Below are positions 487 through 48,667 of a DNA stretch of 55,849 bases, in pieces; position 1 is the first letter of the stretch, and each line of letters opens with the position of its first letter. Source of the DNA: Octopus sinensis (taxonomy: Eukaryota); assembly GCF_006345805.1 (NCBI RefSeq), contig NW_021833779.1, forward strand, positions 1-55,849, in the 5' to 3' direction. Position numbers and translations under genes: made by a program. Below the pieces are notes generated by a model, which was not told the DNA's origin, ran no database searches, and saw nothing but the letters and a program-made list of their open reading frames with translations.

Positions 487-795
487 TTATCCACCAAATC
501 CGTAAATTGTCCTACCTTGACGTTTCAAGGCATTAACAACGTCCATTGCGATAACAGTTTTTCTTTTGGCATGCTCAGTGTAAGAAATACAATCACGAAC
601 AGTTTGCTCAATAAAAATCTTAAGGACAGAACGTGTCTCCTCGTAAATTTTTCCAGAAATTCTTCGAACACCCCCTCTTCGACATAGTCTTCTTATTGCT
701 GGCTTAGTAATTCCTTGTATATTGTCAATTAATATCTTTCGAAATCGTTTTGCACCACTCTTTCCTCCTTTGCCACCTTTACCACGTCCAGACAT
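487..795 (-). CDS. H4: Histone H4 (divergent; unit subtype 1)
   Basis: 102-aa [13 protein letters not shown]...[20 protein letters not shown]...[12 protein letters not shown]. An AATAAA lies about 15-20 nt after the stop. Confidence 0.98.
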
Positions 796-1573: not shown

Positions 1574-1880
1574 CAGTGAACAAAAATAAAAATTGAAAAG
1601 GCATTTTCTCCTGAATTTACTATGAAACAATATTTAAAAAATAACTTTTAGTTTGTCTAAAAAATATTATATTTATACGGTTTTCCATTCATTGATAATT
1701 CAGAACCCAAAAAAATGAACAAATTTATTTAATATCCATTATATTTTCCATTAGCTCTAATTACATCTAGTGTTCGGCCTGGCATGCTATTAATAAGACT
1801 TTTTGCGTATTTTATTTTGAGTTAATTCCAAATGGATGATATTTTTGCAAATAAATGTTCTTTTTTCAAAAATTCTCTTC
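1574..1880 (-). mobile_element. Tc1/mariner-like transposon, left end only (rest deleted at the junction with LINE A1)
   Basis: TA + CAGTGAACAAAAATAAAAA terminal inverted repeat. Matches 49743-50089. Confidence 0.85.
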
Positions 1881-2941
1881 AAGAGGGCGATTACCCTGCT
1901 TGAAGCGTGCAATGGCAGAGGCACTGGGGTACTCCTGCTGCAGGTGACCTAGGAGGTCATTATCCTCGAAGTCCCGAGGAACCCCGAGGAGGAGGACACT
2001 TACCTTACTTAACTTACGTTCGATCCTGACAAGGCGATGCATGCCAGGACCGAACGGATTTGACTTCTCCAGCTCCCCTTTGAAGTTGGAGAAGTCATCC
2101 TCCTTCTCCCACCCAAGCAGGAATTGGGTAGGCTCCCTCTTCAGGACTCTGTACAGCTTTGAAGGCTGGATAGAGTCTAACGTACCTAAGATCTTTATGA
2201 CCGAGGCCTTCCCACTTGGAGGGAGGACCTCAAGTCGTGCCACAGCACCGAAGGTAATTCTGCCCCCGGCGCCAGTGGTCTTCTTTGGGTGTGCATCCAC
2301 CTGATCGGACACACACCCAGTACCTAAAACATTAGGGGGGGTTGGACGGCCAGCCGCACGTTTGGGTTTCCCCACCGTGTACCAACCGTCCTCAAGGGCA
2401 ACCTTATTTCCTGCCGTACCCACCGGGACGGCCTCAGGAGACGACACCCTGTTGGCATTAATTGACTTACCTAGTCTGGGTTTGGTACCACTAGACAAAC
2501 CGCAAACACGTGGCGAACCAGCATGCTGTGCGGTTGTGGTGGATAACAAACGATCAGAACCAGTTGCAACCTGCAGCTCCCCCGACACACCACCATAGGG
2601 GGAGCAGAGGAAGAAGTTGTCCAGTGAGTGCTGAACCCACCTGGGAGGGTCCAGGCTTCGACTTCTCCTTCCTGCTTTCGCCTAGAAAATTAAAGACACC
2701 ACTAGAATAGCCGGAAGCGCGTGGCGGTGAACCACGGCTCCGGCAATTCATCGTAGTGGCACACTGAACCGTCTTGTCCTTCTGGGAGAGCGAGACGGGA
2801 ACACCTCCACTTCTGCATAGTCTTCTTAGTGCAGACAGCTTGCGAGCAGATTTTGCAGACAACTGTTTCCTTGGTACTTTTGCACCAGTAGATTTTCGAG
2901 CCGTTTGTTTTGTTCTAGCCATATTTTATTATTTCAGAAAA
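1877..2941 (-). mobile_element. LINE A copy A1: H3 leader + H3-head ORF1 5' half, 3' part deleted
   Basis: Same sequence as 6461-7519. Joined to the Tc1 remnant through a cttc microhomology. Confidence 0.9.
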
Positions 2942-3065
2942 GGAAAAATTTATTGGTTAAGGGAGGCAGTTAAAAAAAAAAACTAACTAAGTAGACCTTC
3001 GGCATCGCTGCCTTTTCAGTCTCCATCTCACACACGCCTCCCTACACACAACCACAGGTTAAGAC

Positions 3066-5680
3066 TTACCGCCTTACCTGCCATCCAGAAATAATCTTCT
3101 CTAGGACCTCAGAGAGGCCTTTGAGAGATGATTCCTGGGCGTCGGAGAGCTCAGTCCGGAATCCTAAGCCATAGGCTAGCCTTATGGCTCGTCTTCTTAC
3201 TTTTTTAAGCACGTCAACATGCTTATCCCTGTCCTCATAGAGGTACCAAGCGTGGACGCCATAGGTCAAGACGGGTAACACCATGGCGTTAAACACGCGG
3301 AACCAGGCACCTCTGCTCAAGCGGAAAGCACGCAACGCACCTAATCGCTGCATTGCACGCATTTTCGTACGTGCAATGTGATCATCAAACTTACCGGACG
3401 GCTTAAAGAGCACGCCCAAATAAGTCATCCGATCAACTGCAGCGATTGCTGACCCGCTCAGCAATAACCTAGGAACAAAATTAGTGTAACCCCTCGTCCT
3501 TTTACAGACTTTAAGGACACTGCACTTGTCCGCGCACATTCTCAGACCCCTACTCCCACACCAGTTTGCAAGTCCATCCACAGCAACCTGAAGCCTACGA
3601 CACGCACACTCCGGTTTCATTGAGTGATCCCAGAGGATAATGTCGTCTGCATAGATTACCATTTCAGTACGAGCATTGACTGGCATAGGCGCAGTGGCCA
3701 TAAACACATTGAATAGTGTCGGACTGAGCACAGAGCCCTGAGGGACCCCGCGAAGGACTGTTGCGACTTTAGAAAAGACCCCCTGATGCCGCACGACCTG
3801 CCTGCGAGATTCAAGAAACCCCGACAGCCAGCGCCTTAGACACGGAGAAACCCCACACGTGGCAAGGGAACTCCGGAGGCCGTCGTGCCACACCGAGTCA
3901 AAGGCCTTTTCAATGTCGAGACTAACTAAAATACCGCATTCCCTTTTCTGGAGGGCGTTCTTCATACCAGACGACACCTTGTGAAGGCAGTCCCCGCATG
4001 AGCGGCCCTCCCTGAAGCCCCATTGGAACTCAGGGAGGGCGTCTGCAACCATCAGCTCCTCCAGGAGCCTTTGGTGCATAATTCTTTCTAGGATTTTAGA
4101 TATTGCGGGGAGCAAGGAAATGGGCCTATATCCCCCGGGGACATCATGTGGCTTCCCGGGCTTTCCGATAAGGATTACCTCAGCCACTTTCCACCTGGAG
4201 GGAATCATCCCAAGTCGCAAGCTCCCGTTAAATAAAACCTTTAGTGCAGTGATTAACCGCGGCGGGGCCTTCTTAAAGATGGCCATCGGGATCCGATCCA
4301 AACCCGCCGCGGTGTTCTTACTTCGGGAGATTGCTGCCAGAATCTCCGCTTCAGTAATTTCGCCTGCATCGTTCCTTGATATGCCCAGCTGGCAGCGCTT
4401 GTCCCACGACAATATCTGCTGGACAGTATCAAAGGACGATGTCTCTACGAACTGACTTCCGTCAGTTCCCGAGATGCCATTGAGATGGGCTGAAAGTATT
4501 TCAACCACCCCTCAACCGGGTCCGAAGCGAGGGTTCCATCAGAGCGTTTAAGGCGCACTGACTTAGCCCCCCTTCTCCCCGACAGGCTCTTCAACTGCTT
4601 CCAGAAGTCCGGAAAGCGAGGGTCCACCCTTCGGCAGGCCCTCTCCCACCGCGAACTTTCGAGTTCGCGGATTTCTCTTCGGATCTCCCTCTGAAGCCGG
4701 CTAATCCAGCCACGAAACCAAACACGGTTCTCCTCGTAAACGCATTTGTCCCGTAGTCTGGATAGCCGGCGCTTGAACCTAATTTTATTTAAGATCCGGT
4801 GAGGGAGCGTGGAATGTGCCTGACCCTGCACTGAGTTTTGTTTGAAATTATCTCGCATGTAATCAGTCAGGGCAGCATTGATTCCATTATCAAGCGCCTC
4901 CAACTCACGTATGTTGGCGCAGGTATTCCCCACCAGAAGTGAGGGCAACCTGCTGGCCATGAAACTCTCCAGGTTAGCCCAGGAACCCACCCGGAGGTCA
5001 AAGTATCCTGGGACCCTTTGAGGAACTGGCTCACGGAGTTCGTGCAATAGAGGCAGATGGTCGCTCCCAATATCGGACAATAAAATAGTTTTACTAACCC
5101 AATTTAGAAGACCGGGACTGACCAGAGCAAGCCCTAGCCAGTCACGTCCTCCCCTCGCGTCGACGTGGTTTGGCTCGCTCGAAGTCCGGATTTCCAGCCC
5201 GAGGTCTTCAACCAGCGTCTTCAGAGCCAAACCATGCGAGTTGGTTACCCTGAAACCAAGATCTTGATGCTTGGCATTCAGGTCCCCAACAACCATGGCC
5301 TTCGGATGCTTTTCAAAGAACTCCCGTACGTGCCAGGAGCACGCCGTAAAGTTCTTCGAGTACATCCCACCTAGGTAAAATGTTAACTCGCCTATGCGAA
5401 TTCTCACTTGGAGGAATTCACACAAGCTACATGAACATATACCTGGACTCTGCAAGGCAAGGTAGGGCTTGTAGAAGAGGCTAGTTCCTGTGCCACATAT
5501 TGACCCCTGTTTCCAGGGTATGTGACGACAGTTGTAGCCATCAACTACGTACGGACCCCCCTTTACCTTCGTTTCGTTGACCACCAGAATGTCCGCACTC
5601 GTGGTGGCCAACATCCTCTGAACGGCGTCCCTTTTTCCTTCCAAGGAACGCGCGTTCACCGATATGATGTTGAGCATCAT
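3066..5680 (-). CDS. LINE A ORF2: AP-endonuclease + reverse transcriptase (one frameshift near 4508, probably a read error)
   Basis: ISVNARSL, VNETK, VGDLNAKH, GSDHLP; YRPISLL, QWGFR, LDIEKAFDSV, GVPQGSVLSP, YADD, YLGV. No RNase H is recognisable. Confidence 0.93.
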
Positions 5681-7500
5681 ATCGGTTCTTCGCCAAGGAT
5701 CTTCTTGGCCTCGGCAACGTTGCAGTGTAGCATTTCCTCTACACTGCAATTCATCTCCCTACAAAATTTTAATAGGGAAACGCATAATTGCACCGCAGGA
5801 CTAATACTGTCCTGCGGTACACGCTCGCCAGGGGCTGAGTGCAATGGCATCTCCACGTATGGAGGACGCCTTTTCAGCCCCAGGTTGTGCCGGACGGCGC
5901 CGCCGCCGTTAGCCGCCTCAGAAGGCATTGCCGGCTTAGGCAACCAAGCGGACTCGGAAGCTTTCACCTGCTTTGCCAACTTTGTCGGCGAAGGCTGCAC
6001 CGACCCACACGTAGCATGGCTCACAGGTTCCACTGTCTTCGCCACCCAAACGGATTTGGAAGGTTTGGCCAGTATCGCCTGCTTGCCAGGTTTTGGCGCA
6101 GGGCGCGCGACGCGACGCGGGCGACTTACTGTTGGGATTACATCCCCACCTACCTTTCGGGTTGCCTCCTTGAACTTGGGGCAACCTCTGAAGTTGGCAG
6201 TGTGTCCCAACTTACCACAGTTGACACACTGCCTCTCCTTGGATGGTGAGGGGCACGTCTTGCGACCATGCTCCCCACCGCAAATAAGGCACTTCGCCTT
6301 ATCCGGGCACTTTGTGGAGATGTGCCCGAACCCCTGACACCGAAAGCATTGGGTGGCTTTCGGGCGGGGCCAGGCAGCTCTCATCCTAATGTAGCCGATC
6401 CTGTACCAAGAAGTACCAGGCGCTCAGCTTCTGCAGGAGATCCCAGTGTAATCTCCACCACTTCAAGAGGGCGATTACCCTGCTTGAAGCGTGCAATGGC
6501 AGAGGCACTGGGGTACTCCTGCTGCAGGTGACCTAGGAGGTCATTATCCTCGAAGTCCCGAGGACCCCGAGGAGGAGGACACTTACCTTACTTAACTTAC
6601 GTTCGATCCTGACAAGGCGATGCATGCCAGGACCGAACGGATTTGACTTCTCCAGCTCCCCTTTGAAGTTGGAGAAGTCATCCTCCTTCTCCCACCCAAG
6701 CAGGAATTGGGTGGGCTCCCTCTTCAGGACTCTATACAGCTTTGAAGGCTGGATAGAGTCTAACGTACCTAGATCTTTATGACCGAGGCCTTCCCACTTG
6801 TAGGGAGGACCTCAAGTCGTGCCACAGCACCGAAGGTAATTCTGCCCCCGGCGCCAGTGGTCTTCTTTGGGTGTGCATCCACCTGATCGGACACACACCC
6901 AGTACCTAAAACATTAGGGGGGGTTGGACGGCCAGCCGCACGTTTGGGTTTCCCCACCGTGTACCAACCGTCCTCAAGGGCAACCTTATTTCCTGCCGTA
7001 CCCACCGGGACGGCCTCAGGAGACGACACCCTGTTGGCATTAATTGACTTACCTAGGCTGGGTTTGTACCACTAGACAAACCGCAAACACGTGGCGAACC
7101 AGCATGCTGTGCGGTTGTGGTGGATACCAAACGATCAGAACCAGTTGCACCTGCAGCTCCCCCGACACCAGCCATAGGGGGAGCAGAGGAAGAAGTGTCT
7201 CCAGTGAGTGCTGAACCCACCTGGGAGGGTCCAGGCTTCGACTTCTCCTTCCTGCTTTCGCCTAGAAAATTAAAGAACACCACTAGAATAGCCGGAAGCG
7301 TGGCGGTGAACCACGGCTCCGGCAATTCATCGTAGTGGCACACTGAACCGTCTTGTCCTTCTGGGAGAGCGAGACGGAACACCTCCACTTCTGCATAGTC
7401 TTCTTAGTGCAGACAGCTTGCGAGCAGATTTTGCAGACAACTGTTTCCTTGGTACTTTTGCACCAGTAGATTTTCGAGCCGTTTGTTTTGTTCTAGCCAT
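5677..7500 (-). CDS. LINE A ORF1 (gag-like, about 610 aa by consensus of copies) with an N-terminal histone H3 tail and an H4 peptide
   Basis: Starts [41 protein letters not shown]. Knuckles [43 protein letters not shown]. Overlapping translated pieces from copies A1-A4 tile one frame. The stop overlaps the ORF2 start (ATGA). Confidence 0.85.
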
Positions 7501-7519
7501 ATTTTATTATTTCAGAAAA

Positions 7520-7605
7520 CAATGACATGCCAGTATAGTCAAAAAGCACATCATTCCGAATTTTTTTCGAGTGATGCAAAAAGTATTATTCCGAAATTTT
7601 TTTGG
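7520..7605 (-). promoter_or_regulatory. H3 promoter (subtype 1) upstream of LINE A2
   Basis: Closely matches 12576-12665 upstream of the real H3 gene. Contains two CATTCCG/TATTCCG motifs. Confidence 0.85.
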
Positions 7606-7668
7606 TTAAATTACTCATCATTATTTTTTTATCTTCAATCATTTCTTAATGTAAAAAATTTGGATATA

Positions 7669-7817
7669 GTTATAATACAGGTAAGAAAACCTGATAACAA
7701 TCCTGTTTCCCCCTCACTATTGCTTGGGACATGTTCCTGGAGGAGCCATCTAGTCTCCAGAGGATTGTGTGTTCTCAAGGTCTTGAGACGTCCAATACAC
7801 TTGAGAAAGCTCAACGA
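7669..7817 (-). pseudogene. CRE-like (RLE-type) LINE C-terminal remnant, cut by A3
   Basis: Copy of 12729-12870. Confidence 0.65.
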
Positions 7818-10800
7818 AATAATAAAATATGGCTAGAACAAAACAAACGGCTCGAAAAATCTACTGGTGCAAAAGTACCAAGGAAACAGTTGTCTGCAAA
7901 ATCTGCTCGCAAGCTGTCTGCACTAAGAAGACTATGCAGAAGTGGAGGTGTTCCCGTCTCGCTCTCCCAGAAGGACAAGACGTTTCAGTGTGCCACTACG
8001 ATGAATTGCCGGAGCCGTGGTTCACCGCCACGCGCTTCCGGCTATTCTATTGGTGTCTTTAATTTCTAGGCGAAAGCAGGAAGGAGAAGTCGAAGCCTGG
8101 ACCCTCCCAGGTGGGTTCAGCACTCACTGGAGACACTTCTTCCTCTGCTCCCCCTATGGCTGGTGTCGGGGAGCTGCAGGTGCAACTGGTTCTGATCGTT
8201 TGTTATCCACCACAACCGCACAGCATGCTGGTTCGCCACGTGTTTGCGGTTTGTCTAGTGGTACCAAACCCAGACTAGGTAAGTCAATTAATGCCAACAG
8301 GTGTCGTCTCCTGAGGCCGTCCGGTGGGTACGGCAGGAAATAAGGTTGCCCTTGAGTACGGTTGGTACACGGTGGGGAAACCCAAACGTGCGGCTGGCCG
8401 TCCAACCCCCCTAATGTTTTAGTTACTGGGTGTGTGTCCGATCAGGTGGATGCACCCCAAAGAAGACCACTGGCGCCGGGGCAAAATTACCTTCGGTGCT
8501 GTGGCACGACTTGAGGTCCTCCCTCCAAGTGGGAAGGCCTCGGTCATAAAGATCTTAGGTACGTTAGACTCTATCCAGCCTTCAAAGCTGTACAGAGTCC
8601 TGAAGAGGGAGCCTACCCAATTCCTGCTTGGGTGGGAGAAGGAGGATGACTTCTCCAACTTCAAGGGGAGCTGGAGAAGTCAAATCCGTTCGGTCCTGGC
8701 ATGCATCGCCTTGTCAGGATCGAACGTAAGTTAAGTAAGGTAAGTGTCCTCCTCCTCGGGTTCCTCGGGACTCGAGGATAATGACCTCCTAGGTCCCTGC
8801 AGCAGGAGTTAACCCAGTGCCTCTGCCATTGCACGCTTCAAGCAGGGTAATCGCCCTCTTGAAGTGTGTGAGATTACACTGGAATCTCCTGCAGAAGCTG
8901 AGCGCCTGGTACTTCTTGGTACCAGGATCGGCTACATTAGGATGAGAGCTGCCTGGCCCCGCCCGAAAGCCACCCAATGCTTTCGGTGTCAGGGGTTCGG
9001 GCACATCTCCACAAAGTGCCCGGATAAGGCGAAGTGCCTTATTTGCGGTGGGGGCATGGTCGCAAGACGTGCCCCTCACCATCCAAGGAGAGGCAGTGTG
9101 TCAACTGTGGTAAGTTGGGACACACTCAACATCATATCGTGAACGCGCGTTCCTTGGAAGGAAAAAGGGACGCCGTTCAGAGGATGTTGGCCACCACGAG
9201 TGCGGACATTCTGGTGGTCAACGAAACGAAGGTAAAGGGGGGTCCGTACGTAGTTGATGGCTACAACTGTCGTCACATACCTGGAAACAGGGGTCAATAT
9301 GTGGCACAGGAACTAGCCTCTTCTACAAGCCCTACCTTGCCTTGCAGAGTACAGGTATATGTTCATGTAGCTTGTGTGAATTCCTCCAAGTGAGAATTCG
9401 CATAGGCGAGTTAACATTTTACCTAGGTGGGATGTACTCGAAGACTTTACGGCGTGCTCCTGGCACGTACGGGAGTTTTTGAAAAGCATCCGAAGGCCAT
9501 GGTTGTTGGGGACCTGAATGCCAAGCATCAAGATCTTGGTTTCAGGTAACCAACTCGCATGGTTTGGCTCTGAAGACGCTGGTTGAAGACCTCGGGCTGG
9601 AAATCCGGACTTCGAGCGAGCCAAACCACGTCGACACGAGGGGAGGACGTGACTGGCTAGGGCTTGCTCTGGTCAGTCCCGGTCTTCTAAATGGGTTAGT
9701 AAAACTATTTTATTGTCCGATATTGGAGCGACCATCTGCCTCTATTGCACGAACTCCGTGAGCCAGTTCCTCAAAGGGTCCCAGGATACTTTGACCTCCG
9801 GGTGGGTTCCTGGCTAACCTGGAGAGTTTCATGGCCAGCAGGTTGCCCTCACTTCTGGTGGGGAATACCTGCGCCAACATACGTGAGTTGGAGGCGCTTG
9901 ATAATGGAATCAATGCTGCCCTGACTGATTACATGGGAGATAATTTCAAACAAAACTCAGTGCAGGGTCAGGCACATTCCACGCTCCCTCACCGGATCTT
10001 AAATAAAATTAGGTTCAAGCGCCGGCTATCCAGACTACGGGACAAATGCGTTTACGAGGAGAACCGTGTTTGGTTTCGTGGCTGGATTAGCCGGCTTCAG
10101 AGGGAGATCCGAAGAGAAATCCGCGAACTCGAAAGTTCGCGGTGGAGAGGGCCTGCCGAAGGGTGGACCCTCGCTTTCCGGACTTCTGGAAGCAGTTGAA
10201 GAGCCTGTCGGGGAGAAGGGGGGCTAAGTCAGTGCGCCTTAAACGCTCTGATGGAACCCTCGCTTCGGACCCGGTTGAGGTGGTTGAAATACTTTCAGCC
10301 CATCTCAATGGCATCTCGGGAACTGACGGAAGTCAGTTCGTAGAGACATCGTCCTTTGATACTGTCCAGCAGATATTGTCGTGGGACAAGCGCTGCCAGC
10401 TGGGCATATCAAGGAACGATGCAGGCGAAATTACTGAAGCGGAGATTCTGGCAGCAATCTCCCGAAGTAAGAACACCGCGGCGGGTTTGGATCGGATCCC
10501 GATGGCCATCTTTAAGAAGGCCCCGCCGCGGTTAATCACTGCACTAAAGTTTTATTTAACGGGAGCTTGCGACTTGGGATGATTCCCTCCAGGTGGAAAG
10601 TGGCTGAGGTAATCCTTATCGGAAAGCCCGGGAAGCCACATGATGTCCCCGGGGGATATAGGCCCATTTCCTTGCTCCCCGCGATATCTAAAATCCTAGA
10701 AAGAATTATGCCCAAAGGCTCCTGGAGGAGCTGATGGTTGCAGACGCCCTCCCTGAGTTCCAATGGGGCTTCAGGGAGGGCCGCTCATGCGGGGACTGCC

Positions 10801-11834
10801 TTCACAAGGTGTCGTCTGGTATGAAGAACGCCCTCCAGAAAAGGGAATGCGGTATTTTAGTTAGTCTCGACATTGAAAAGGCCTTCGACTCGGTGTGGCA
10901 CGACGGCCTCCGGAGTTCCCTTGCCACGTGTGGGGTTTCTCCGTGTCTAAGGCGCTGGCTGTCGGGGTTTCTTGAATCTCGCAGGCAGGTCGTGCGGCAT
11001 CAGGGGGTCTTTTCTAAAGTCGCAACAGTCCTTCGCGGGGTCCCTCAGGGCTCTGTGCTCAGTCCGACACTATTCAATGTGTTTATGGCCACTGCGCCTA
11101 TGCCAGTCAATGCTCGTACTGAAATGGTAATCTATGCAGACGACATTATCCTCTGGGATCACTCAATGAAACCGGAGTGTGCGTGTCGTAGGCTTCAGGT
11201 TGCTGTGGATGGACTTGCAAACTGGTGTGGGAGTAGGGGTCTGAGAATGTGCGCGGACAAGTGCAGTGTCCTTAAAGTCTGTAAAAGGACGAGGGTTACA
11301 CTAATTTTGTTCCTAGGTTATTGCTGAGCGGGTCAGCAATCGCTGCAGTTGATCGGATGACTTATTTGGGCGTGCTCTTTAAGCCGTCCGGTAAGTTTGA
11401 TGATCACATTGCACGTACGAAATGCGTGCAATGCAGCGATTAGGTGCGTTGCGTGCTTTCCGCTTGAGCAGAGGTGCCTGGTTCCGCGTGTTTAACGCCA
11501 TGGTGTTACCCGTCTTGACCTATGGCGTCCACGCTTGGTACCTCTATGAGGACAGGGATAAGCATGTTGACGTGCTTAAAAAAGTAAGAAGACGAGCCAT
11601 AAGGCTAGCCTATGGCTTAGGATTCCGGACTGAGCTCTCCGACGCCCAGGAATCATCTCTCAAAGGCCTCTCTGAGGTCCTAGAGAAGATTATTTCTGGA
11701 TGGCAGGTAAGGCGGTAAGTCTTAACCTGTGGTTGTGTGTAGGGAGGCGTGTGTGAGATGGAGACTGAAAAGGCAGCGAAGCCGAAGGTCTACTTAGTTA
11801 GTTTTTAACTCCCTTAACTAATAAATTTTTTCCC
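7816..11834 (+). mobile_element. LINE A copy A3 (inverted orientation; internal deletion of about 0.5 kb near 9126)
   Basis: Begins with 13 nt of H3 leader (gaaataataaaat), ATG at 7829. Ends aataaattttttccc. The third knuckle is fused directly to the ORF2 start (cacact|caacatcat). Confidence 0.92.
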
Positions 11835-11915: not shown

Positions 11916-12146
11916 TAGCTTGTTCATGGTTATAGGTTTTTGTTTGTTTTCCTACTATTTATTAATTATCCAACAAATCCGAATTGAACAATTTTTAATT
12001 ATATTTTTTCTAAAATACACAACTAGTATCTTCTTTTTATCTAAACGAGGTGCAACATTACATTTTCTACAAACTTCAACAAAAAATTTAAAAATTGTCT
12101 CAGAGTTATACAAACAATAAATCATTTTTTTATTTAAAAAAACAAG

Positions 12147-12556
12147 TTATGTTTTTTCACCTCGAATTCTTCTCGATAAATGCATATCGTTTGGCATTAT
12201 AGTTACTCTTTTTCCGTGAATTGCGCACAAATTACTGTCTTCAAAAATTCCAACTAGGTAACTCTCTGCCGCTTCTTGGAGAGCGACAATCGCTGACGAT
12301 TGAAAACGCAATCAGTTTTGATAAACTGAGCGGTTTCTCTCACGAGTCTCTGGAATGGAAGTTTTCGTAGTAACAAATCAGTGCTCTTTTGATATCGTCT
12401 AATTTCTCGCATTGCAACAACTCCAGGTCGAAATCGATGAGGTTTCTTTACTCCTCCAAATTGTGAAACAGACTTGCGAGCAGATTTTGCAGACAACTGT
12501 TTCCTTGGTACTTTTGCACCAGTAGATTTTCGAGCCGTTTGTTTTGTTCTAGCCAT
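12147..12556 (-). CDS. H3: Histone H3 (subtype 1; single 1-nt deletion near 12311, probably a read error)
   Basis: Collinear with the intact H3 at 51456-51866. Confidence 0.93.
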
Positions 12557-12589
12557 ATTTTATTATTTCAGAAAACAATGACAATGCCA

Positions 12590-12665
12590 GTATAGTAAAA
12601 AAAGACATCATTCCGAAATTTTTTCGAGTGATGCAAAAAAGTATTATTCCGAAAATTTTTTGGTT
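12590..12665 (-). promoter_or_regulatory. H3 promoter motif pair
   Basis: aaaagacatcattccgaaattttt and aaaaaagtattattccgaaaattttt. Confidence 0.7.
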
Positions 12666-15932: not shown

Positions 15933-15952
15933 CAGAAGGAATTTGTATGTCC

Positions 15953-25076: not shown

Positions 25077-25106
25077 TTTGTATGTCCTTGGAGAAAAAAC
25101 ATTATA
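25076..25106 (-). promoter_or_regulatory. Residual H2B 5' leader/TATA-like segment, the insertion site of B4 and A4
   Basis: atttgtatgtccttggagaaaaaacattata versus atttgtatgttccggaggggaaaaacattata at 30276-30307, upstream of H2B. Confidence 0.8.
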
Positions 25107-28100
25107 AGTTAAGGGAGTTAAAAACTAACTAAGTAGACCTTCGGCATCGCTGCCTTTTCAGTCTCCATCTCACACACGCCTCCCTACACACAACCACAGG
25201 TTAAGACTTACCGCCTTTACCTGCCATCCAGAAATAATCTTCTCTAGGACCTCAGAGAGGCCTTTGAGAGATGATTCCTGGGCGTCGGAGAGCTCAGTCC
25301 GGAATCCTAAGCCATAGGCTAGCCTTATGGCTCGTCTTCTTACTTTTTTAAGCACGTCAACATGCTTATCCCTGTCCTCATAGAGGTACCAAGCGTGGAC
25401 GCCATAGGTCAAGACGGGTAACACCATGGCGTTAAACACGCGGAACCAGGCACCTCTGCTCAAGCGGAAAGCACGCAACGCACCTAATCGCTGCATTGCA
25501 CGCATTTTCGTACGTGCAATGTGATCATCAAACTTACCGGACGGCTTAAAGAGCACGCCCAAATAAGTCATCCGATCAACTGCAGCGATTGCTGACCCGC
25601 TCAGCAATAACCTAGGAACAAAATTAGTGTAACCCCTCGTCCTTTTACAGACTTTAAGGACACTGCACTTGTCCGCGCACATTCTCAGACCCTACTCCCA
25701 CACCAGTTTGCAAGTCCATCCACAGCAACCTGAAGCCTACGACACGCACACTCCGGTTTCATGAGTGATCCCAGAGGATAATGTCGTCTGCATAGATTAC
25801 CATTTCAGTACGAGCATTGACTGGCATAGGCGCAGTGGCCATAAACACATTGAATAGTAGTGTCGGACTGAGCACAGAGCCCTGAGGGACCCCGCGAAGG
25901 ACTGTTGCGACTTTAGAAAAGACCCCCTGATGCCGCACGACCTGCCTGCGAGATTCAAGAAACCCCGACAGCCAGCGCCTTAGACACGGAGAAACCCCAC
26001 ACGTGGCAAGGGAGCTCCGGAGGCCGTCGTGCCACACCGAGTCAAAGGCCTTTTCAATGTCGAGACTAACTAAAATACCGCATTCCCTTTTCTGGAGGGC
26101 GTTCTTCATACCAGACGACACCTTGTGAAGGCAGTCCCCGCATGAGCGGCCCTCCCTGAAGCCCCATTGGAACTCAGGGAGGGCGTCTGCAACCATCAGC
26201 TCCTCCAGGAGCCTTTGGTGCATAATTCTTTCTAGGATTTTAGATATTGCGGGGAGCAAGGAAATGGGCCTATATCCCCCGGGGACATCATGTGGCTTCC
26301 CGGGCTTTCCGATAAGGATTACCTCAGCCACTTTCCACCTGGAGGGAATCATCCCAAGTCGCAAGCTCCCGTTAAATAAAACCTTTAGTGCAGTGATTAA
26401 CCGCGGCGGGGCCTTCTTAAAGATGGCCATCGGGATCCGATCCAAACCCGCCGCGGTGTTTCTTACTTCGGGAGATTGCTGCCAGAATCTCCGCTTCAGT
26501 AATTTCGCCTGCATCGTCCTTGATATGCCCAGCTGGCAGCGCTTGTCCCACGACAATATCTGCTGGACAGTATCAAAGGACGATGTCTCTACGAACTGAC
26601 TTCCGTCAGTTCCCGAGATGCCATTGAGATGGGCTGAAAGTATTTCAACCACCTCAACCGGGTCCGAAGCGAGGGTTCCATCAGAGCGTTTAAGGCGCAC
26701 TGACTTAGCCCCCTTCTCCCCGACAGGCTCTTCAACTGCTTCCAGAAGTCCGGAAAGCGAGGGTCCACCCTTCGGCATGCCCTCTCCCACCGCGAACTTT
26801 CGAGTTCGCGGATTTCTCTTCGGATCTCCCTCTGAAGCCGGCTAATCCAGCCACGAAACCAAACACGGTTCTCCTCGTAAACGCATTTGTCCCGTAGTCT
26901 GGATAGCCGGCGCTTGAACCTAATTTTATTTAAGATCCGGTGAGGGAGCGTGGAATGTGCCTGACCCTGCACTGAGTTTTGTTTGAAATTATCTCGCATG
27001 TAATCAGTCAGGGCAGCATTGATTCCATTATCAAGCGCCTCCAACTCACGTATGTTGGCGCAGGTATTCCCCACCAGAAGTGAGGGCAACCTGCTGGCCA
27101 TGAAACTCTCCAGGTTAGCCCAGGAACCCACCCGGAGGTCAAAGTATCCTGGGACCCTTTGAGGAACTGGCTCACGGAGTTCGTGCAATAGAGGCAGATG
27201 GTCGCTCCCAATATCGGACAATAAAATAGTTTTACTAACCCAATTTAGAAGACCGGGACTGACCAGAGCAAGCCCTAGCCAGTCACGTCCTCCCCTCGCG
27301 TCGACGTGGTTTGGCTCGCTCGAAGTCCGGATTTCCAGCCCGAGGTCTTCAACCAGCGTCTTCAGAGCCAACCATGCGAGTTGGTTACCCTGAAACCAAG
27401 ATCTTGATGCTTGGCATTCAGGTCCCCAACAACCATGGCCTTCGGATGCTTTTCAAAGAACTCCCGTACGTGCCAGGAGCACGCCGTAAAGTTCTTCGAG
27501 TACATCCACCTAGGTAAAATGTTAACTCGCCTATGCGAATTCTCACTTGGAGGAATTCACACAAGCTACATGAACATATACCTGGACTCTGCAAGGCAAG
27601 GTAGGCTTGTAGTAGAGAGGCTAGTTCCTGTGCCACATATTGACCCCTGTTTCCAGGGTATGTGACGACAGTTGTAGCCATCAACTACGTACGGACCCCC
27701 TTTACCTTCGTTTCGTTGACCACCAGAATGTCCGCACTCGTGGTGGCCAACATCCTCTGAACGGCGTCCCTTTTTCCTTCCAAGGAACGCGCGTTCACCG
27801 ATATGATGTTGAGCATCATATCGGTTCTTCGCCAAGGATCTTCTTGGCCTCGGCAACGTTGCAGTGTAGCATTTCCTCTACACTGCAATTCATCTCCCTA
27901 CAAAATTTTAATAGGGAAACGCATAATTGCACCGCAGGACTAATACTGTCCTGCGGTACACGCTCGCCAGGGGCTGAGTGCAATGGCATCTCCACGTATG
28001 GAGGACGCCTTTTCAGCCCCAGGTTGTGCCGGACGGCGCCGACGTTAGCCGCCTCAGAAGGCATTGCCGGCTTAGGCAACCAAGCGGACTCGGAAGCTTT

Positions 28101-29640
28101 CACCTGCTTTGCCAACTTTGTCGGCGAAGGCTGCACCGACCCACACGTAGCATGGCTCACAGGTTCCACTGTCTTCGCCACCCAAACGGATTTGGAAGGT
28201 TTGGCCAGTATCGCCTGCTTGCCAGGTTTTGGCGCAGGGCGCGCGACGCGACGCGGGCGACTTACTGTTGGGATTACATCCCCACCTACCTTTCGGGTTG
28301 CCTCCTTGAACTTGGGGCAACCTCTGAAGTTGGCAGTGTGTCCCAACTTACCACAGTTGACACACTGCCTCTCCTTGGATGGTGAGGGGCACGTCTTGCG
28401 ACCATGCTCCCCACCGCAAATAAGGCACTTCGCCTTATCCGGGCACTTTGTGGAGATGTGCCCGAACCCCTGACACCGAAAGCATTGGGTGGCTTTCGGG
28501 CGGGGCCAGGCAGCTCTCATCCTAATGTAGCCGATCCTGGTACCAAGAAGTACCAGGCGCTCAGCTTCTGCAGGAGATCCCAGTGTAATCTCCACCACTT
28601 CAAGAGGGCGATTACCCTGCTTGAAGCGTGCAATGGCAGAGGCACTGGGGTACTCCTGCTGCAGATGACCTAGGAGGTCATTATCCTCGAAGTCCCGAGG
28701 AACCCCGAGGAGGAGGACACTTACCTTACTTACCTTACGTTCGATCCTGACAAGGCGATGCATGCCAGGACCGAACGGATTTGACTTCTTCAGCTCCCTT
28801 TGAAGTTGGAGAAGTCATCCTCCTTCTCCCACCCAAGCAGGAATTGGGTGGGCTCCCTCTTCAGGACTCTATACAGCTTTGAAGGCTGGATAGAGTCTAA
28901 CGTACCTAAGATCTTTATGACCGAGGCCTTCCCACTTGTAGGGAGGACCTCAAGTCGTGCCACAGCACCGAAGGTAATTCTGCCCCCGGCGCCAGTGGTC
29001 TTCTTTGGGTGTGCATCCGCCTGATCGGACACACACCCAGTACCTAAAACATTAGGGGGGTTGGACGGCCAGCCGCACGTTTGGGTTTCCCCACCGTGTA
29101 CCAACCGTCCTCAAGGGCAACCTTATTCCTGCCGTACCCACCGGGACGGCCTCAGGAGACGACACCTGTTGGCATTAATTGACTTACCTAGGCTGGGTTT
29201 GGTACCACTAGACAAACGCAAACACGTGGCGAACCAGCATGCTGTGCGGTTGTGGTGGATACCAAACGATCAGAAACCAGTTGCACCTGCAGCTCCCCCG
29301 ACACCAGCCATAGGGGGAGCAGAGGAAGAAGTGTCTCCAGTGAGTGCTGAACCCACCTGGGAGGGTCCAGGCTTCGACTTTCCTTCCTGCTTTCGCCTAG
29401 AAAATTAAAGACACCACTAGAATAGCCGGAAGCGCGTGGCGGTGAACCACGGCTCCGGCAATCATCGTAGTGGCACATGAACCGTCTTGTCCTTCTGGGA
29501 GAGCGAGGCGGGGACACCTCCACTTCTGCATAGTCTTCTAGTGCAGACAGCTTGCGAGCAGATTTTGCAGACAACTGTTCCTTGGTACTTTTGCACCAGT
29601 AGATTTTCGAGCCGTTTGTTTTGTTCTAGCCATATTTATT
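25107..29640 (-). mobile_element. LINE A copy A4, full-length, H3-head ATG at 29633
   Basis: Collinear with A2. Only about 7 nt of H3 leader is present, followed by H2B 3'-flank sequence. Confidence 0.93.
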
Positions 29641-29904
29641 GTTTTGCGAGAGAACGATCAGATCCCGGTCAAAAGAATAGCTTGCAAGTTGTCGCGCATG
29701 ATTGTAACCGAGATCCTTGTTTCAGCCAAGAAGATTCGCGTGCATACATGTTTTCCGAGCTATAAGGAGCCCGACATCTTTTAAGAACTGGATGTTGAGA
29801 AGGCTGCGGAGGTCTCGAATGGCAAAGGAACAATTACTAGTTAGATTTCGATTGTGTTGCAATAGTTATTTAGAGAACAAATGAATAAAAATATTTTTAA
29901 AGTG

Positions 29905-40695: not shown

Positions 40696-40885
40696 ATTTT
40701 TTTTATTTCAGACAGGACAGTTTCAGGAATGGAATGGAAAGTTTTATTGTAAGTAAAACAGAGACTAAGTAAAAAGGTTGGACGAGGTTAAACGAGACGA
40801 CTGCGAAGACAGTCGAGCTCTGCCGAGATTCGTCCTAAGGGAATATATGAGCCGGGTTTTTGAAGAGTCACTCTCTGATTGAATT

Positions 40886-43503
40886 TCAGACGCGATCCAC
40901 GAAAAGATCGGTCACCTGAGACCGCCGACGAAAAGTTCGGATGGAATCAAGGATGACTTTCTCGATTAGTGGAGATTTCTCCTCTGCCCAGTTGGGTAGC
41001 GGGGCGCGTAGATCCAATCTGTACGCTAGCTTTAACGCATAGCGACGGATCTTCTCACATTTTTTCAATATTTTTCCGAATTGGTTTGAATAGTGCCACG
41101 CCTCCTCCATCCCATACAAGAGACTTGGGAGAATCGTCGCGCGCGAAGACAAACAGAAAAGTGTCGGGGGCCAAATGCATACCTCAGGAAGCGAAGGCCG
41201 CAACGGCCTTTTTCCTTTTTTGGGTGATGTGCAGTAAGTACTCCGAGTTAGAGTCTACCGTCAAGCCCATATAGCGAATGTGGCTCGGGCGGGGAAGTCT
41301 TCTGAGAATCTCAGGCTCTTGCCTCGATTTGCGCCGTGAGTTAATTTCAATTTCAAGGTACGCCGACTTGTCCATAGCAATGGATAGTTGTTTACACCCG
41401 ACACCAGGTCTCTATCATTCCGATGTAGCTGGAAAGACGGTGCTCCGAGAGGCGGGGCTTTTTGAAATATCCATAATGAGGACGTCATCAGCGTACAAGA
41501 GGAAAGTTGTCCGCGGATTGGGGAAGGAGGGGAAGCTGCTCATCACAAGGTTGAACAGCAGCGGGCTGAGACTGGATCCCTGCGGACACCCCTTCGGAGA
41601 TGTATATCTCTGGAGTGGAAGCCCGACTGGGACACAAAGGAGATACGGTTAGAAAGAAAGCAATTCAGCCAGAGAAATGCCTCTCTCGTTGGCTCACAAC
41701 TGCGAACCCTGTCCAATAGGTCTGGGTGGTACACGCTGTCGAATGCTTTAGAGATGTCAAGGCAGATGCAAGATAAAGTTTCGTTGAACTCCATTGCTTC
41801 AAAGCCATCGATTGGAGAATCAGAAAACAATCGGCGCAGCTGCGCCCCGAGCGGAAGCCCCACTGCTGGGGCAGAAGCACGCATTTCTGCTCAGCGAAGG
41901 AGTCGAAGCGTTTGGTCATAATTTTTTCCATAAGCCTCGAGATCGTTGGTATTAGACTGATGGGTCGATAGCTGCTGGCAAGGTTAGCTGTTTTTGCAGG
42001 TTTCTTGATCATCCGTCGTTTTCGGCGACTTTCCAGGCACTTGGAACGTGGCTCCAGCGAAGACTAGCCGAGAAGAGGCGTGCCAAAATCAGACAGTTCC
42101 GGAGGGCCTTCTTTGAACATTTTCATTGGTAGCATGTCATGCCCCGGTGCGTTGTCCCTCGCCGAGAGGATGGCCCAGGTCACCTCAGTCAGCGCGGTGA
42201 TTGGGTGATGATCAACAGATAGGGAGTCTGCTTGGTCTATAGGACTGGCATGTGAGTTTCCCCAGCGATCCTCATGGTCCGGCAGAGGACGGTCCAGGTG
42301 ATCAGCAAATATGTTGGGGATTTCCTCCACCGACGCAGGCATTCCAGCTGAGTTCGATAATTCTGGTGCCGGAGAGTTCACGAGATGATTAGAGAGTCTG
42401 TTGTAGGCTATCCAGAAGTTTGGGTTCCTGTGATTAAGACCAGAGCAGCCTTCTTCCACATCCTCTCAAGATCTTTCTTTCTTGTGAGTTCAATTTTGTG
42501 GTTGAGCAGAGAGATTTCCGACCTTAGGGTACCTTGGTCCGTTGGGTCGGCACAGCGTTTGAGCTTGTTTCGCAGGCGCTTCTTTTCGCCCAGAAGTTGG
42601 AGAAGTTTGGGTTTGGATGATGTGTAATGCCCTTGCTAGTTGGGCGCACCCTCCTAGCGTGGGCTTCAAGTAGAGTCGCATGAAGTCCGTCAATTCGGCG
42701 CCCGAGTTGTCGATGTCCGAGGTAGATTGATAGCTGCCTGGGCGTACGTTGTTGCGAAAGAACAAGTTCAGAGCATAACGGTAGTGCGCCCAGTTGATGT
42801 TCGAAAGGGTGTATCGTGGTGGGCAACGGATTTGGGTGTCTACCGAGACGTGGACACAGACCTGCATTGGCAGGTGGTCGCTCCCAATATCGTCGAGTAC
42901 TATTGGTTCTCCCATAAGATTCGCGACTGATTGAGAGCTCAGTGCTACGCAAAGGTTGTCCCAGCCGAATGGGGAGCGGTGGTTCCGGGCTTTCGAGGTG
43001 CGGACACAGACGTCTAGCCTACCTGCCGCTCTTTCAAGTAACCGGCCCGCCCGATTGGTCACGCGACAACCAAATGCCGTGTGTTTGGAGTTTAGATCAC
43101 CGATGAGGAGGCAATGATTTGAGCTGACAAAGAAGTCTTCGATAAGACCGATGCATGGAGCAAGGTTTTTGCAATATATTCCGCCCACTTTTAACCAAAA
43201 GCGCTGGGTTTTAATCTCTAGCGAGATAAATTCGCATAGGTTCCGTTCGATAGTCTTGAGGTTGCGTGTCTTGAGATTTTGCAGGTAGTAGATAGTCGTC
43301 CCAGTCCCAGGCGTAGAGTTATTTCTCCATTTCAGGTCAAGGGAGCAGTATCCTGGCAATTCGAAGCATTGACCTTCTTTCAGCTTAGACTCGTTGACGA
43401 CGATCAAGTCAGGATGGCCGCTGTTTACCATCTCAACGAAGTCGAGGTGCCGTCTCTTGACAGATCGGGCATTCACAGCGATGATTTTTAGTGGCGTGGT
43501 CAT
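40886..43503 (-). CDS. LINE C ORF2 (APE + RT), many frameshifts
   Basis: MTTPLKIIAVNARS, IGDLNSKH, GSDHLP, YRPISLIP, LDISKAFDSV. Confidence 0.85.
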
Positions 43504-44874
43504 TTTGCTGGCGAGCTCCTCTCTGATAGGAGCTCTTCTAGCTTCTTGGGTTTGACTCCCAGTTTTCAGCTGCGTCGACACAGCGTTGGTAAAATTCCAA
43601 CAGAGCATCCTTGTTGTGAGAGTCTACCCTTCGCCTGCGTTTTGGCCTGCTGAGTACCGTTCCTTATTGGGCTGACGGGCCTCGGTTTCACAGCCTCGCG
43701 ACAGGGGCCTGCATGCTCTGCGCACCAACCTCAACGACTTGCGTCGTCTGGGTATGGGCGTCCGCCACACACGGGTTATTAGCGGCCGTACTTTCCAGAT
43801 AGGCGTGACCGGCTTAGCTTTTACCATTACCATGCGGGTTGGGTTAGGAGACCGAGGCATTGCTTCTGCGCGGGCGGCCCATTTAGCTGCTGTTGCAGCT
43901 TTGGCCGTCGGGCATCCACCATACGAAGCGAGGTGGCCGGGGCGGTCACAATTGATACAATGCCGACCGCAGGGCTCCACTAGACTTTGTTTGCTGCCTG
44001 GGCATTCCCTTCGGTCGTGGTCCTTGCCGCAGTATAAGACCGGGCTTTTTCTTGACAGTTACGGGACAGGTGTCCGAATCTCTGACAATGGAAACATCGG
44101 ACGACAGGAGGTCTGAACCATTCACAGGTGATAAGGCAGAAACCAGCTGTGATTCCGGTGCGGATCAAAGAAGTAGCTTCAGCTCGTGAGTCAAGCGTCA
44201 GCTTAGCAACTGGGATGTTGAGACCATCTCGCGTGAATCGCTCGAGAACGAACACCGAACTGAGGGTTTCCTTCAGGTGCAGCTCTAGGTCCCGATTGGA
44301 GATCCATCGCGGAATCCCCTTTAGGACTAGTGCTGACTTTTGCGGAGTAACTAAGGCAAGTTTATGGCCGCTTCGCCAAACGGGTTCAATCTTGCAAGCT
44401 CAGCCGAGAATGCATCAGCATCTCCGGGGCTCCTGAACTCAAGAGTGAAGGAGCCTGAGCGTTGTAATGTAATCCGTGCTTTGGAGGCAGTTGGCGACTT
44501 GGATAGGAGGTAAACCTCTTGATCTTTCCAAGTGCCGGGTTATTAATGCTCAGAGTGAATGTGAGGCCTGAGCTGTTAAGGTCAGACCTCGGGGGTTCGG
44601 TGGATTCTTCAACTTTGGAGGGCTCTCCTTGAACCATCTGGACCGTCGGAGCACCTCCACTTCGACATAGATTTCTTATTGCAGACAATTGTTCGGTGGA
44701 ATCTTCTTCAACTTTGATGGAAACATGTTGAACCGTCTGATCCGTCAGAACACTCCCACTTCGACATAGGTTTCTAATTGTAGACAATTGTTTCCTTGGA
44801 ACTTTTGTTCTTTTTTGTCCTTCAGTGTTTGCTTTTGCGTTTTCTTTTGAGTTTTTCTTAGGTGCCATTGACAT
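43500..44874 (-). CDS. LINE C ORF1 with an H2B/H3/H4 mosaic N-terminus (frameshifted downstream)
   Basis: MSMAPKK...[24 protein letters not shown]...QLSAIRNLCRSGG runs in frame into LSINNPALGKIKRF, which is shared with B ORF1. CCHC knuckles follow. Confidence 0.83.
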
Positions 44875-46206: not shown

Positions 46207-46303
46207 ATTTTTGTTATTTCAGACAGAACCGATTCAGACAAGTTATTTTTGTTTTATATTATTCCGAATTTTTAAACAACGTTATGGAATGGAATGGAAA
46301 GTG

Positions 46304-47759
46304 AATGAATGAATGAAGTTTATTGTAATTAACAGAGAAAGAGAAAGTGACAGGAATTAAGGACGGTGATAGGACGAGACTGATGCAAAGGCAACTGAAC
46401 TCTTCTGAGCTTGCGTCCAATTCATCTGTCGTGAGCCAGAGTTAATGGTGGCTATGTTGCTGAATTGCTCCCTTCTAGCAGGAGCTCTTGCAGCATATCC
46501 ATATCCACTCCAAGTAGGGTCAGGGCTCCTACACAACAGCGGAAGCATTCCAGTTGGGAATCTCTGTTGTGTAGGTCCTGATCCGAGTGGGGACCTCTTT
46601 GTGACAAAGCTTTGTCACTGTGGGTTTTTCTCCTCTTACGAGGGACAGCCGAGCGGACCACTTCTGAGTTATGGCACTCATTAGTGGTTGTCTTCGAGTT
46701 TGTGAGTGTGCTGGGGGCCGGCGACGTCTGAGTAGAGACATCGACTTTGGACGGACTTCGGGGAGCCGCTTTTGTCCAGACTGATTTTATCGGTTCGGCT
46801 TTCACCCAGCGTACTGGGCTTTTTGTCTGTGGGCTCTTCGCAGCCCTTGAGGCTGCTGTTGCTGCTTTGGCAGATGGACATCCACCGTAGCACGCCAAGT
46901 GCCCAGTGTTCTTGCAATTAATGCAAGTTTTTGCAGCTGGGACATTCGGTTTTGGCTTGGAACTCGGGCAGTTTTGGTGCCTGTGTTCTTTACCGCAGAG
47001 GAGACAACGGAGTTTTTCGGAGCATCTGTAGGACGTATGTCCAAACTGATTGCAACGGAAGCATCTCGTTGCTGAGGGCTTGTGCCATTCGCAGCGGATA
47101 TGGCTGAAGCCCGCAGTTATTCCAAAGCGGATGAGGGTGTTGGCCTCGGCTCTGGAATCCAGCGTGAGTCTGCCGATAGGCATGTCGGTTCCATTGCGAG
47201 AGAATCTTTCGAACTTGAAGTCCGATTCTAGACTTTCTCTCAAGTGGAGGTTAAGATCCTCTGTCGAGATCCAATGAGGGATTCCTTTAAGGACCAAGAC
47301 TGAGGCCTTCTCAGCTATTGAGGCAAGTTTATGGCCGCCTTCGCCAAACATATTCGATTGAGTCAACTCTGCTTTGAACGCAGCAGCATCCTCTGGCGAA
47401 CTGAATTTTAGAATGAAGGTGCCGGACTTCTGTAAGGTTATCCGGGCTTTCGAAGCAGTTGGAGACTTGGATAGGAGGTTAAACCTCTTAATCTTTCCAA
47501 GTGCCGAGTTTTCGATACTCAGAGAATATGTGAGGTTCGAGCTGTTACCCTCAGTTGTCGTCTGATGCAATTGGGTCTCACTGTGTTTTTGAGCCACAGT
47601 AGGGTTCGGAGGGGTCGGATGTTCGGTGGGATATTCAGGTTCGCAAAAGGGCTGTGGCTTGGCCGCTGTTCGTCTTTGAACTTTGGAGCAAGCTTTGATT
47701 GATGCGAGATTTTGTTTATTCTTGACCATTTTTTCTTTATTTTCCTTTACCATGCAACT
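46304..47759 (-). mobile_element. Non-autonomous ORF1-only LINE (B') with a 7-bp TSD and a (TTCA)n tail
   Basis: TSD gaaagtg at 46297-46303 and 47760-47766. The empty site is visible at about 36596 and 55012. ORF1 is followed directly by a B/C-like 3'UTR, AATAAA and the tail. Confidence 0.92.
46452..47753 (-). CDS. Intact B' ORF1, 433 aa from the ATG at 47753, three CCHC knuckles
   Basis: Uninterrupted ORF. The longer start in the ORF track lies outside the TSD, in the promoter. Confidence 0.9.
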   Translation of the reverse strand: MVKENKEKMVKNKQNLASIKACSKVQRRTAAKPQPFCEPEYPTEHPTPPNPTVAQKHSETQLHQTTTEGNSSNLTYSLSIENSALGKIKRFNLLSKSPTASKARITLQKSGTFILKFSSPEDAAAFKAELTQSNMFGEGGHKLASIAEKASVLVLKGIPHWISTEDLNLHLRESLESDFKFERFSRNGTDMPIGRLTLDSRAEANTLIRFGITAGFSHIRCEWHKPSATRCFRCNQFGHTSYRCSEKLRCLLCGKEHRHQNCPSSKPKPNVPAAKTCINCKNTGHLACYGGCPSAKAATAASRAAKSPQTKSPVRWVKAEPIKSVWTKAAPRSPSKVDVSTQTSPAPSTLTNSKTTTNECHNSEVVRSAVPRKRRKTHSDKALSQRGPHSDQDLHNRDSQLECFRCCVGALTLLGVDMDMLQELLLEGSNSAT

Positions 47760-48667
47760 GAAAGTGGAGTGAAAAAATCTCATATAATAAAAAAGTATCA
47801 TTCCGAAATTTTGTTGAGTAATTCAAAAAAAGTATAATTCCAAAATTTTTGAAGTTGACGGGATGACCCTTTTCCCATTTGAGAAAGGAAAAGGCCTCGT
47901 ATGGCATGCAAGCTGCTGGGATACTTTCTCTGCTTCACATCTAACCTCGTGTGCTCTGGAGGCTAAATCAGCTGCTAAAAAGCCTGAAGATTTAAAGCTT
48001 TCCAAATATTCTGCCCTTTTGGAATAAAATATCAAGAGGAATTCTGCAAGGGGACTCTTTGTCTCCACAGCTATTTGTTTTGGTGATGGATACTTTGAGT
48101 AGGATGTATTAATGTTTTAGTTATTATAACACATTCCGTGGGAACATAAACAAAGTTATAATCCCACACGTGTCACAAGCGAAACAATCTTCTGGACCAT
48201 CCTTGTCCATGCCCTTCTGTTGCGGGCGAGATCCCGTAAAGATTCTAGGTCGTCCCAGTTTTTGAAACTTTTGCCATGAAGTTTGAGATCCCTTTCAAGA
48301 ACTGTCGGAAGAGTGGATCTAGGTCTTCCACGATATTTGTCTCCATGTTCAAGAAATAATCGTCCATTGCCCGATTGGCCGGAGCTCTGGGGTCCACTCG
48401 CAAATAATTCTCTAAATAAACATAATTATAAACAGATGCAAAAAAATAAAATATTAGAAAAAAATAAATTTTTCAACGATATAACTCTAATTTACTGTAT
48501 AAATATACTTTTTGTTATTTCAACAAGATTTCTTACCAATTAAAAAAGCAATCGTAGTATTTCACCGTCGTTTGGTAGCTAGTTAGTATATTTATGAAAT
48601 TGCTAATTTTTATCTGGTTAATTTGTAAGGAATATCAATGTATTTTATTAAAAAAATTATGTATAAT

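Follow-up and report, generated by a model that had tools for sequence, protein, structure and literature searches.

A LINE family at histone promoters in an Octopus sinensis assembly bears exchangeable histone N-termini at the start of its ORF1

The copies of a LINE family, here named A, begin with the 5' leader and N-terminal codons of a host histone gene, which are joined in frame to a zinc-knuckle ORF1, and the histone supplying this head can be either H3 or H2B. The anatomy of the element, its mobility, its target preference and its head swaps are observed directly in DNA. The best explanation, to which we assign a probability of roughly 0.6, is that family A targets histone core promoters and acquires from them a promoter, a leader and a start codon, with the head serving as 5' homology and new heads arising through rare in-frame joins. 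An original prediction, made from the sequence of the window alone, had described an H3-headed element; the H2B-headed sister copies, the heads of either subtype, the H4 layer beneath the heads and the promoter-adjacent 3' junctions are new relative to it.

The window is the whole 55,849-nucleotide stretch of contig NW_021833779.1 that was analysed. It is an AT-rich, strongly rearranged histone array, in which H3, H4, H2A and H2B genes, of two sequence subtypes, have been invaded by LINEs of families A, B/D and C, as named in this analysis. All evidence is at the DNA level and comes from a single, noisy assembly (G000), in which single-base indels are frequent. The H3 genes of this assembly form two unlike sets: a canonical set, with many members on chromosome-scale contigs, and a second set, approximately 79% identical to the first, which was listed only on other, higher-numbered contigs together with the H3-headed LINE copies (7-674 kb, for those contigs whose size was seen). 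Because the two sets differ and sit on separate contigs, the window probably derives from a second organism co-assembled with the main animal. The closest named H3 (P0300, 98%) is filed under an octopus; our guess at the second organism would be a parasite, such as a dicyemid. A motif around TTCGGAAT is common to all window histone promoters (e.g. 12610-12660) and is a candidate site for a histone-gene regulator, with 23 occurrences in the window versus none in four canonical H3 loci. The window also contains three truncated H3 heads that are pseudogenes and lack 12 nt internally (36449-36505, 46148-46206 and 54863-54921, minus strand), which end near codon 31 and pass into AT-rich spacer without a LINE body. 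Family B contributes approximately four tandem 2.5-kb units of its ORF2 region, about 99% identical, at 13505-23458, and its 5' end carries a 12-mer repeated five times at 24992-25051. The features on which the argument depends are as follows.

490..795, minus strand: host H4 gene, the source type of the H4 module buried in the LINEs
1877..2838, minus strand: body of copy A1, 3'-truncated where it joins histone spacer
2799..2832, minus strand: H4-derived module of A1, H4 codons 33-43, in frame (29/34 nt; 0/300 shuffles reach its score)
2839..2922, minus strand: H3 head of A1, Met plus residues 1-27, 84 nt (84/84 nt identical to 12473-12556)
2923..2941, minus strand: H3 subtype-1 5' leader of A1, 19 nt, adjoining the 3' tail of A2
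2942..7500, minus strand: A2, a complete element (Pfam Exo_endo_phos and RVT_1)
About 7500-5677 and about 5680-3066, minus strand: ORF1 and ORF2 (APE and RT, no RNase H) of A2, whose 3' end is a T-run plus a C-run
7501..7671, minus strand: H3 subtype-1 promoter and leader upstream of A2, a candidate source-copy arrangement (93% to 12557-12730)
7816..11834, plus strand: A3, H3-headed, with a 13-nt leader, a non-H3 5' flank and an internal deletion near 9130
12146..12556, minus strand: host H3 gene, subtype 1 (Pfam Histone), the donor type of the window heads
25090..29644, minus strand: A4, H3-headed and complete, with H2B downstream DNA as its 5' flank and an H4 gene end as its 3' flank
40727..44868, minus strand: family C LINE, whose 3' end meets the leader of an H3 subtype-2 gene at about -30
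46290..47765, minus strand: family D element without a detectable histone head, directly behind an H2B promoter
51456..51866, minus strand: host H3 gene, subtype 2, the donor type of seven heads elsewhere in the assembly
52391..52753, minus strand: host H2B gene, subtype 2, codons 1-25 of which are the head type of sister copy L036 (76/76 nt)

Family A lacks LTRs, has a simple 3' tail of a T-run and a C-run, includes 5'-truncated copies, and encodes in ORF2 an APE endonuclease (PF14529/PF03372) followed by a reverse transcriptase (PF00078). It is an APE-RT LINE, an APE-type non-LTR retrotransposon, with a possibly Jockey-like ORF1. The best relatives of its reverse transcriptase are approximately 28-36% identical and mostly unnamed, and the endonuclease had no PDB sequence matches. 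ORF1 contains three CCHC knuckles (window 27819-28814) and no Pfam family; its nearest Atlas clusters are arthropod zf-CCHC / PRE_C2HC proteins (0.91-0.92), which are a lead only, and a single-sequence structure model gave no useful information (pLDDT 36.9). At window 5677-5682 (minus strand; ATATGATG) the ORF2 ATG and the ORF1 stop overlap, which suggests coupled translation. A histone-like 3' stem-loop was rejected (z -0.04).

The four window copies proved to be arranged as predicted. Their ATGs lie at 2922, 7500, 7829 and 29633, and all share one head-body junction; the head of A1 is identical to the subtype-1 H3 gene, and A3 and A4 deviate from it by single-base indels. Five informative SNPs, with none conflicting, divide A1/A3 from A2/A4. 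A2 retains a whole H3 promoter upstream, the leader is 19 nt in A1, 13 nt in A3 and 4-7 nt in A4, the 5' flanks of A3 and A4 are not H3, and A3 lies on the opposite strand (plus) to the other three (minus). The claim that the H3 head reads in frame into the CCHC-bearing ORF1 was tested on natural copies, rather than on a consensus, and held: the junction is at offset 84 and in frame in 21/28 copies examined, the remaining seven having single-base indels inside or beside the head. One H3-headed copy (L033) has a natural open frame of 362 aa that starts at its H3 ATG and enters the frame running unbroken through the three knuckles in A4, and in an H2B-headed sister (L034) the open frame covers 579 aa and includes the knuckles. 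None of the H3-headed copies in this error-rich assembly has an open frame across the whole of ORF1. H3 residues 1-27 are intact at the N-terminus, constituting a histone-tail motif in a non-histone ORF, and K27 is followed by Leu instead of Ser.

The head moves with the element. A search of the assembly, in which 40/99 candidates were scored, returned 42 matches: 29 head-plus-body copies, eight starting at the body, one partial match beside a contig end, and four H3 genes, such that these counts are lower bounds. Hence at least 29 head-plus-body copies, on 17 contigs, share one junction, and longer stretches were examined for 28 of them, L062b and L063 being a single copy that is counted once. 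It had been anticipated that the H3 leader and tail would travel with the element, and they do so in frame, with copies on contigs that have no listed histone gene keeping the head: five complete H3-headed copies are found on contigs of 25-674 kb without a listed H3, H2B or H4 gene (L033, L048, L051, L057 and L058; scored candidates 36/36 for H3, 40/45 for H2B and 40/74 for H4), although one, L048, has an H2B-promoter-like piece 1.8 kb away. Neither of the two outcomes that the prediction named as fatal to it applies: the head is in frame, in none of the 18 complete H3-headed copies is the 3' end followed by the remainder of H3 from codon 29, and all eight candidates for headless full-length copies with their own leader and ATG carry an H2B head instead, leaving no headless full-length copy among the 42 matches. 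Full-length copies start 12-14 nt upstream of the histone ATG and have no other 5' UTR, the leader having this length in 14/28 H3-headed copies (11/24 once shared flanks are merged), and being 14 nt in 4/8 H2B-headed copies. A full H3 promoter precedes just 3/28 H3-headed copies, of which one (L049) is 3'-truncated. In one copy after another, the flanking sequence is different beyond the 5' leader and beyond the 3' tail. These sharp ends at both boundaries, together with the unrelated flanks, fit retrotransposition of an RNA beginning with a histone leader, and from these DNA copies we infer that the H3 leader and tail are part of the retrotransposed RNA. The target-site duplication that is usual, but not universal, in LINEs was found at 0/23 two-ended copies, and near-blunt joins were seen in the two cases described below. 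No tRNA gene was present beside the seven dispersed copies checked. A long target duplication was rejected as the source of the head because 3' ends rarely run into an H3 head.

Alternatively, a single insertion at H3 codon 28 could have been multiplied by rearrangement of the array or by segmental duplication, or the fusion could be an assembly artefact. The arrays are heavily rearranged, single-base indels are many, and 5' flanks are held in common by four pairs of copies (L045a/b, L046a/b, L054/L055 and L061/L062); furthermore, contigs from two independent runs (X1 and X2) cover body parts at approximately 85-99% identity without any spanning the head junction, and runs X3 and X6 yielded none; on expression this speaks neither way. 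However, the flanks differ at both ends between copies, five complete copies lie away from listed histone genes, and no 3' junction resumes H3 at codon 29, making this account largely refuted and very improbable. Two local arrangements were seen alongside: L054 and L055 (C11576) are head-to-head and 98% identical over about 800 nt of 5' flank, with different 3' flanks, which represents an inverted duplication or a 5' transduction, while L062-L063 (C8744:152600-163700) are tandem units of an H2B gene, an H3 promoter and an H3-headed A, with the 3' end of the element at the H2B leader and its 5' end beneath the next H3 promoter.

The head is also exchangeable. Eight sister copies start not with H3, but with the H2B leader and H2B codons 1-25 in frame, the heads of L034 and L036 matching H2B subtypes 1 and 2, respectively, at 76/76 nt each. 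The H3 heads are of subtype 1 in 20 copies, subtype 2 in seven, and mixed in one, and both occur on both body types, so that all four combinations are found. An unrooted tree of the first 420 nt of the body has a branch (86/92, not starred) that sets the H2B-headed copies apart, with the H3-headed L031 and L032 next to them. Directly under either head lies a module of 34 nt that the original prediction missed, 29 of which match host H4 codons 33-43 in frame. It carries a Cys also found in the host H4, at a position where canonical H4 has Ala. Between H3- and H2B-headed copies this module has four synonymous and no non-synonymous changes, and therefore translation is suggested, albeit from small numbers; ORF1 residues 29-80 have a pN/pS of 0.24, on six and four changes, and residues 81-135 show no constraint (pN/pS 1.18). 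The ORF1 of family C starts with an H2B-like piece, H3 codons 13-24 (31/33 nt) and two copies of the same H4 module, which differs from H4 by one synonymous and four to five non-synonymous changes, and so lacks a constraint like that in family A. The H4 module appears to be the older layer, common to families A and C, and the H3 1-27 head is probably the youngest, because H2B-headed copies retain codons common to C and H4. In L046 (3000-3100 and 8300-8420), an H2B leader and seven codons, ending in a stop, precede the H3 leader, which looks like a failed head capture.

Such heads might be retained mainly for the peptide, which is the mimic idea of the original prediction, with the ORF1 protein using the tail as an import signal, a chaperone ligand, or a decoy for chromatin readers or writers. 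This is compatible with the promoter-based explanation, yet as the main reason for keeping the head it is doubtful. All the captured pieces retained across a family are histone segments in frame, and the H4 module and residues 29-80 show the low non-synonymous change described above. The yeast H3 import signal (residues 1-28; PMC5677370) is almost the same stretch as the H3 head, which includes K14 and K23. However, H2B takes the place of H3 on near-identical bodies, the H2B head ends just short of the KKKKKRK tract of H2B, and the corresponding module of family C has changed mainly non-synonymously. Moreover, B/D elements occupy histone promoters without a detectable head, and the heads of family A do not differ from host genes at silent positions either, as refreshing would explain even if the peptide is not under selection. 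Because H2B substitutes for H3, an H3-specific mimic role is weakened, and nuclear import would be the most plausible role, if there is one. It is conceivable, though we hold it only tentatively, that a clan of LINEs residing on histone promoters has repeatedly captured, swapped and refreshed H4, H3 and H2B tails because their ORF1 proteins use them as working mimics, exploiting the histone import route and binding histone chaperones or readers when histone genes are active.

The 3' ends of the elements indicate where they land. A junction search (40/171 candidates scored) gave 34 junction keys for family A, reduced to 32 by merging two pairs that were likely amplified. Twelve of these distinct junctions lie 9-33 nt before a histone start codon, in sense: five at H2B -23, three at H3 -16 to -19, and one each at H3 subtype 2 -33, H4 -17/-19, H4 -9 and H2A -10, with one (L092) assigned by its H4 coding match alone. 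At several, the leader piece heads another LINE copy. The binomial tail for 12/32 is 6e-13 at a chance of 0.02 per junction, and 3e-26 at 0.0015, both chances being assumed estimates. The other 20/32 junctions are not at a firm leader position, and the leader sequences differ, hence the targeting is a positional preference only; most 3' junctions of a target-specific LINE would be at one target sequence, which is not the case for family A. Family C has 5/24 junction keys at histone leaders. Just behind histone promoters are the window D copy and four of eight B/D loci re-examined, from a total of 30, and no histone origin of the B/D N-terminus was detected by sequence comparison. As these headless elements also sit at histone promoters, the head is not needed for promoter preference, and the suggestion that it tethers the element to the histone locus is weakened. 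A variant form of the A 3' end (TATAATG, T-run, C-run; e.g. 25090-25115) is closely similar to the H2B subtype-1 core promoter immediately before its leader (window 30266-30300, minus strand), which could help priming or stem from an old target. Family C has a second recurring 3' flank, beginning TGGGTATTTG (L112, L114, L118, L119, L128, L129 and L141), which is not a histone leader; one copy has a single change, there are three different continuations, and it is possibly another preferred start site.

These joins of tails to leaders could instead be template jumps. Under such an account, reverse transcriptase would switch from element RNA to abundant histone mRNA, creating and refreshing the heads at the RNA level, with the element relying on its own internal promoter. 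The chimeras of U6 and L1 are a known case of such switching. It would suit the sharp 5' starts near the likely cap site, the extra G or GG at many tail-to-leader joins, the doubled leaders of L046, and an A 3' end (L060) that abuts a 5'-truncated B copy. Conversely, the genes beyond 3' junctions run on into genomic spacer for more than 1 kb (L059 and L035), no full-length copy among the 42 matches lacks a head, and the matching promoter was found on the 5' side in two cases. In the first, a truncated C copy in C8744 separates an H3 promoter precisely from its leader, without any gain or loss of sequence; in the second, a 5'-truncated A copy in L035 is near-blunt between promoter and leader. 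These both-sided cases therefore favour insertion into promoter DNA and disfavour template jumping as the general cause of the joins, making RNA-level switching an unlikely origin of the heads. The clean-insertion reading covers C8744 and L035, and may or may not extend to the leader-adjacent L082, L092, L130 and L140.

The promoter-based explanation can be set out as a cycle, for which transcription, translation and pairing are postulated from the arrangement of the copies. The 3' end of A would land at the open promoter of an H3, H4, H2A or H2B gene by target-primed reverse transcription. Source copies would be transcribed from the histone promoter, such that their RNA begins with the histone leader, and the ORF1 protein, of approximately 600 aa, would be translated from the histone ATG and carry the histone tail. 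The head may then let the end of the cDNA pair, or later recombine, with a resident histone gene, restoring the promoter and bringing the head back into line with the local subtype. Further heads would be added where, rarely, a microhomology gave an in-frame join, in the order H4 33-43, the H3 KQLSA piece, and finally H2B 1-25 or H3 1-27. What the element gains from the head would chiefly be the promoter, leader, start codon and 5' homology, with a basic import signal as a likely bonus. Several points count against this. Few copies (3/28) lie under an H3 promoter, and transcription might come from an internal promoter rather than that of the histone gene. Nick sites and the usual 5' ends are about 4-20 nt apart, and so the true transcription start is uncertain. 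Finally, the mosaics of head and body subtype could come from gene conversion within arrays or from assembly chimeras, and L061 and L062 share a 5' junction while their body types differ.

If the explanation is right, it describes a way for an element to pirate the promoters and start codons of Pol II genes, perhaps with transposition timed to histone expression, and the layers form a visible record of the gain and replacement of N-termini in LINE ORF1. The natural swap of H3 for H2B on near-identical bodies makes histone mimicry by a transposon directly testable, and were the mimic reading true, the transposon would encode a histone mimic that keeps pace with the sequence of host histones.

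Histone mimicry has viral precedents in influenza NS1 and SARS-CoV-2 ORF8. Among mobile elements, CopiaMBD holds a host chromatin module (PMC6673714). CopiaMBD has a reader domain and the viral proteins a short convergent motif, whereas family A has an authentic histone N-terminus identical to the host gene, for which a function is a candidate only. No histone-like head was found in the best 150 of 9649 ORF1 relatives, an absence that is weak because many are fragments, and a search of other organisms with the L033 open frame gave one protein, a fused double H3 gene model (P0121). In the literature searched, at the level of listings and abstracts, no report of a histone-promoter LINE or histone-headed ORF1 was found, with Repbase, Dfam and most subscription papers outside this scope, such that a precedent is possible; PMC11727581 describes passive histone retrocopies only, and nothing relevant to such elements was found in PMC3747384.

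Family A resembles known LINEs in several respects. Its three CCHC knuckles are like those of the Jockey-like class of ORF1 proteins, in which an RRM precedes the knuckles (PMC3905857). Utopia, Keno, NeSL and other LINEs prefer multicopy RNA genes and insert in tandem, sometimes without target duplication (PMC4640811), and family A similarly prefers multicopy genes and lacks the duplication, but its targets are histone promoters. PMC8869645 lists as LINE targets the genes for rRNA, tRNA, spliced-leader RNA and snRNA, together with microsatellites, telomeres and other transposable elements; the word 'histone' is absent from it. Like R1, which is APE-type and inserts in 28S rDNA, family A is an APE-RT LINE aimed at a tandem multicopy gene. 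In the Drosophila melanogaster group, upstream target sequence is inferred to be in the R1 transcript, and 7-28 bp are carried to ectopic sites (PMC2718515). Unlike R1, family A targets a set of Pol II histone promoters rather than one rDNA site, carries approximately 97 nt that supply a start codon and are read in frame, lacks a target duplication, and exchanges its head between H3 and H2B; where the R1 clade has a fixed 28S rDNA site, with a 14-bp duplication or 9-bp deletion, A junctions are at histone leaders or scattered. R2 differs in having one ORF and a restriction-like endonuclease. In lineages of R2 whose ribozyme cleaves upstream in the 28S, transcription from the host promoter and repeated 5' extensions over time are described, and the target-derived 5' sequence is proposed to anneal to the target, giving uniform 5' junctions (PMC3774820). 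Family A likewise carries target-derived 5' sequence, although that of R2 is rRNA and that of family A is histone. By analogy, family A appears to work like R1 and R2, but with the captured sequence translated; it is a member of neither, having a different target and no fixed site.
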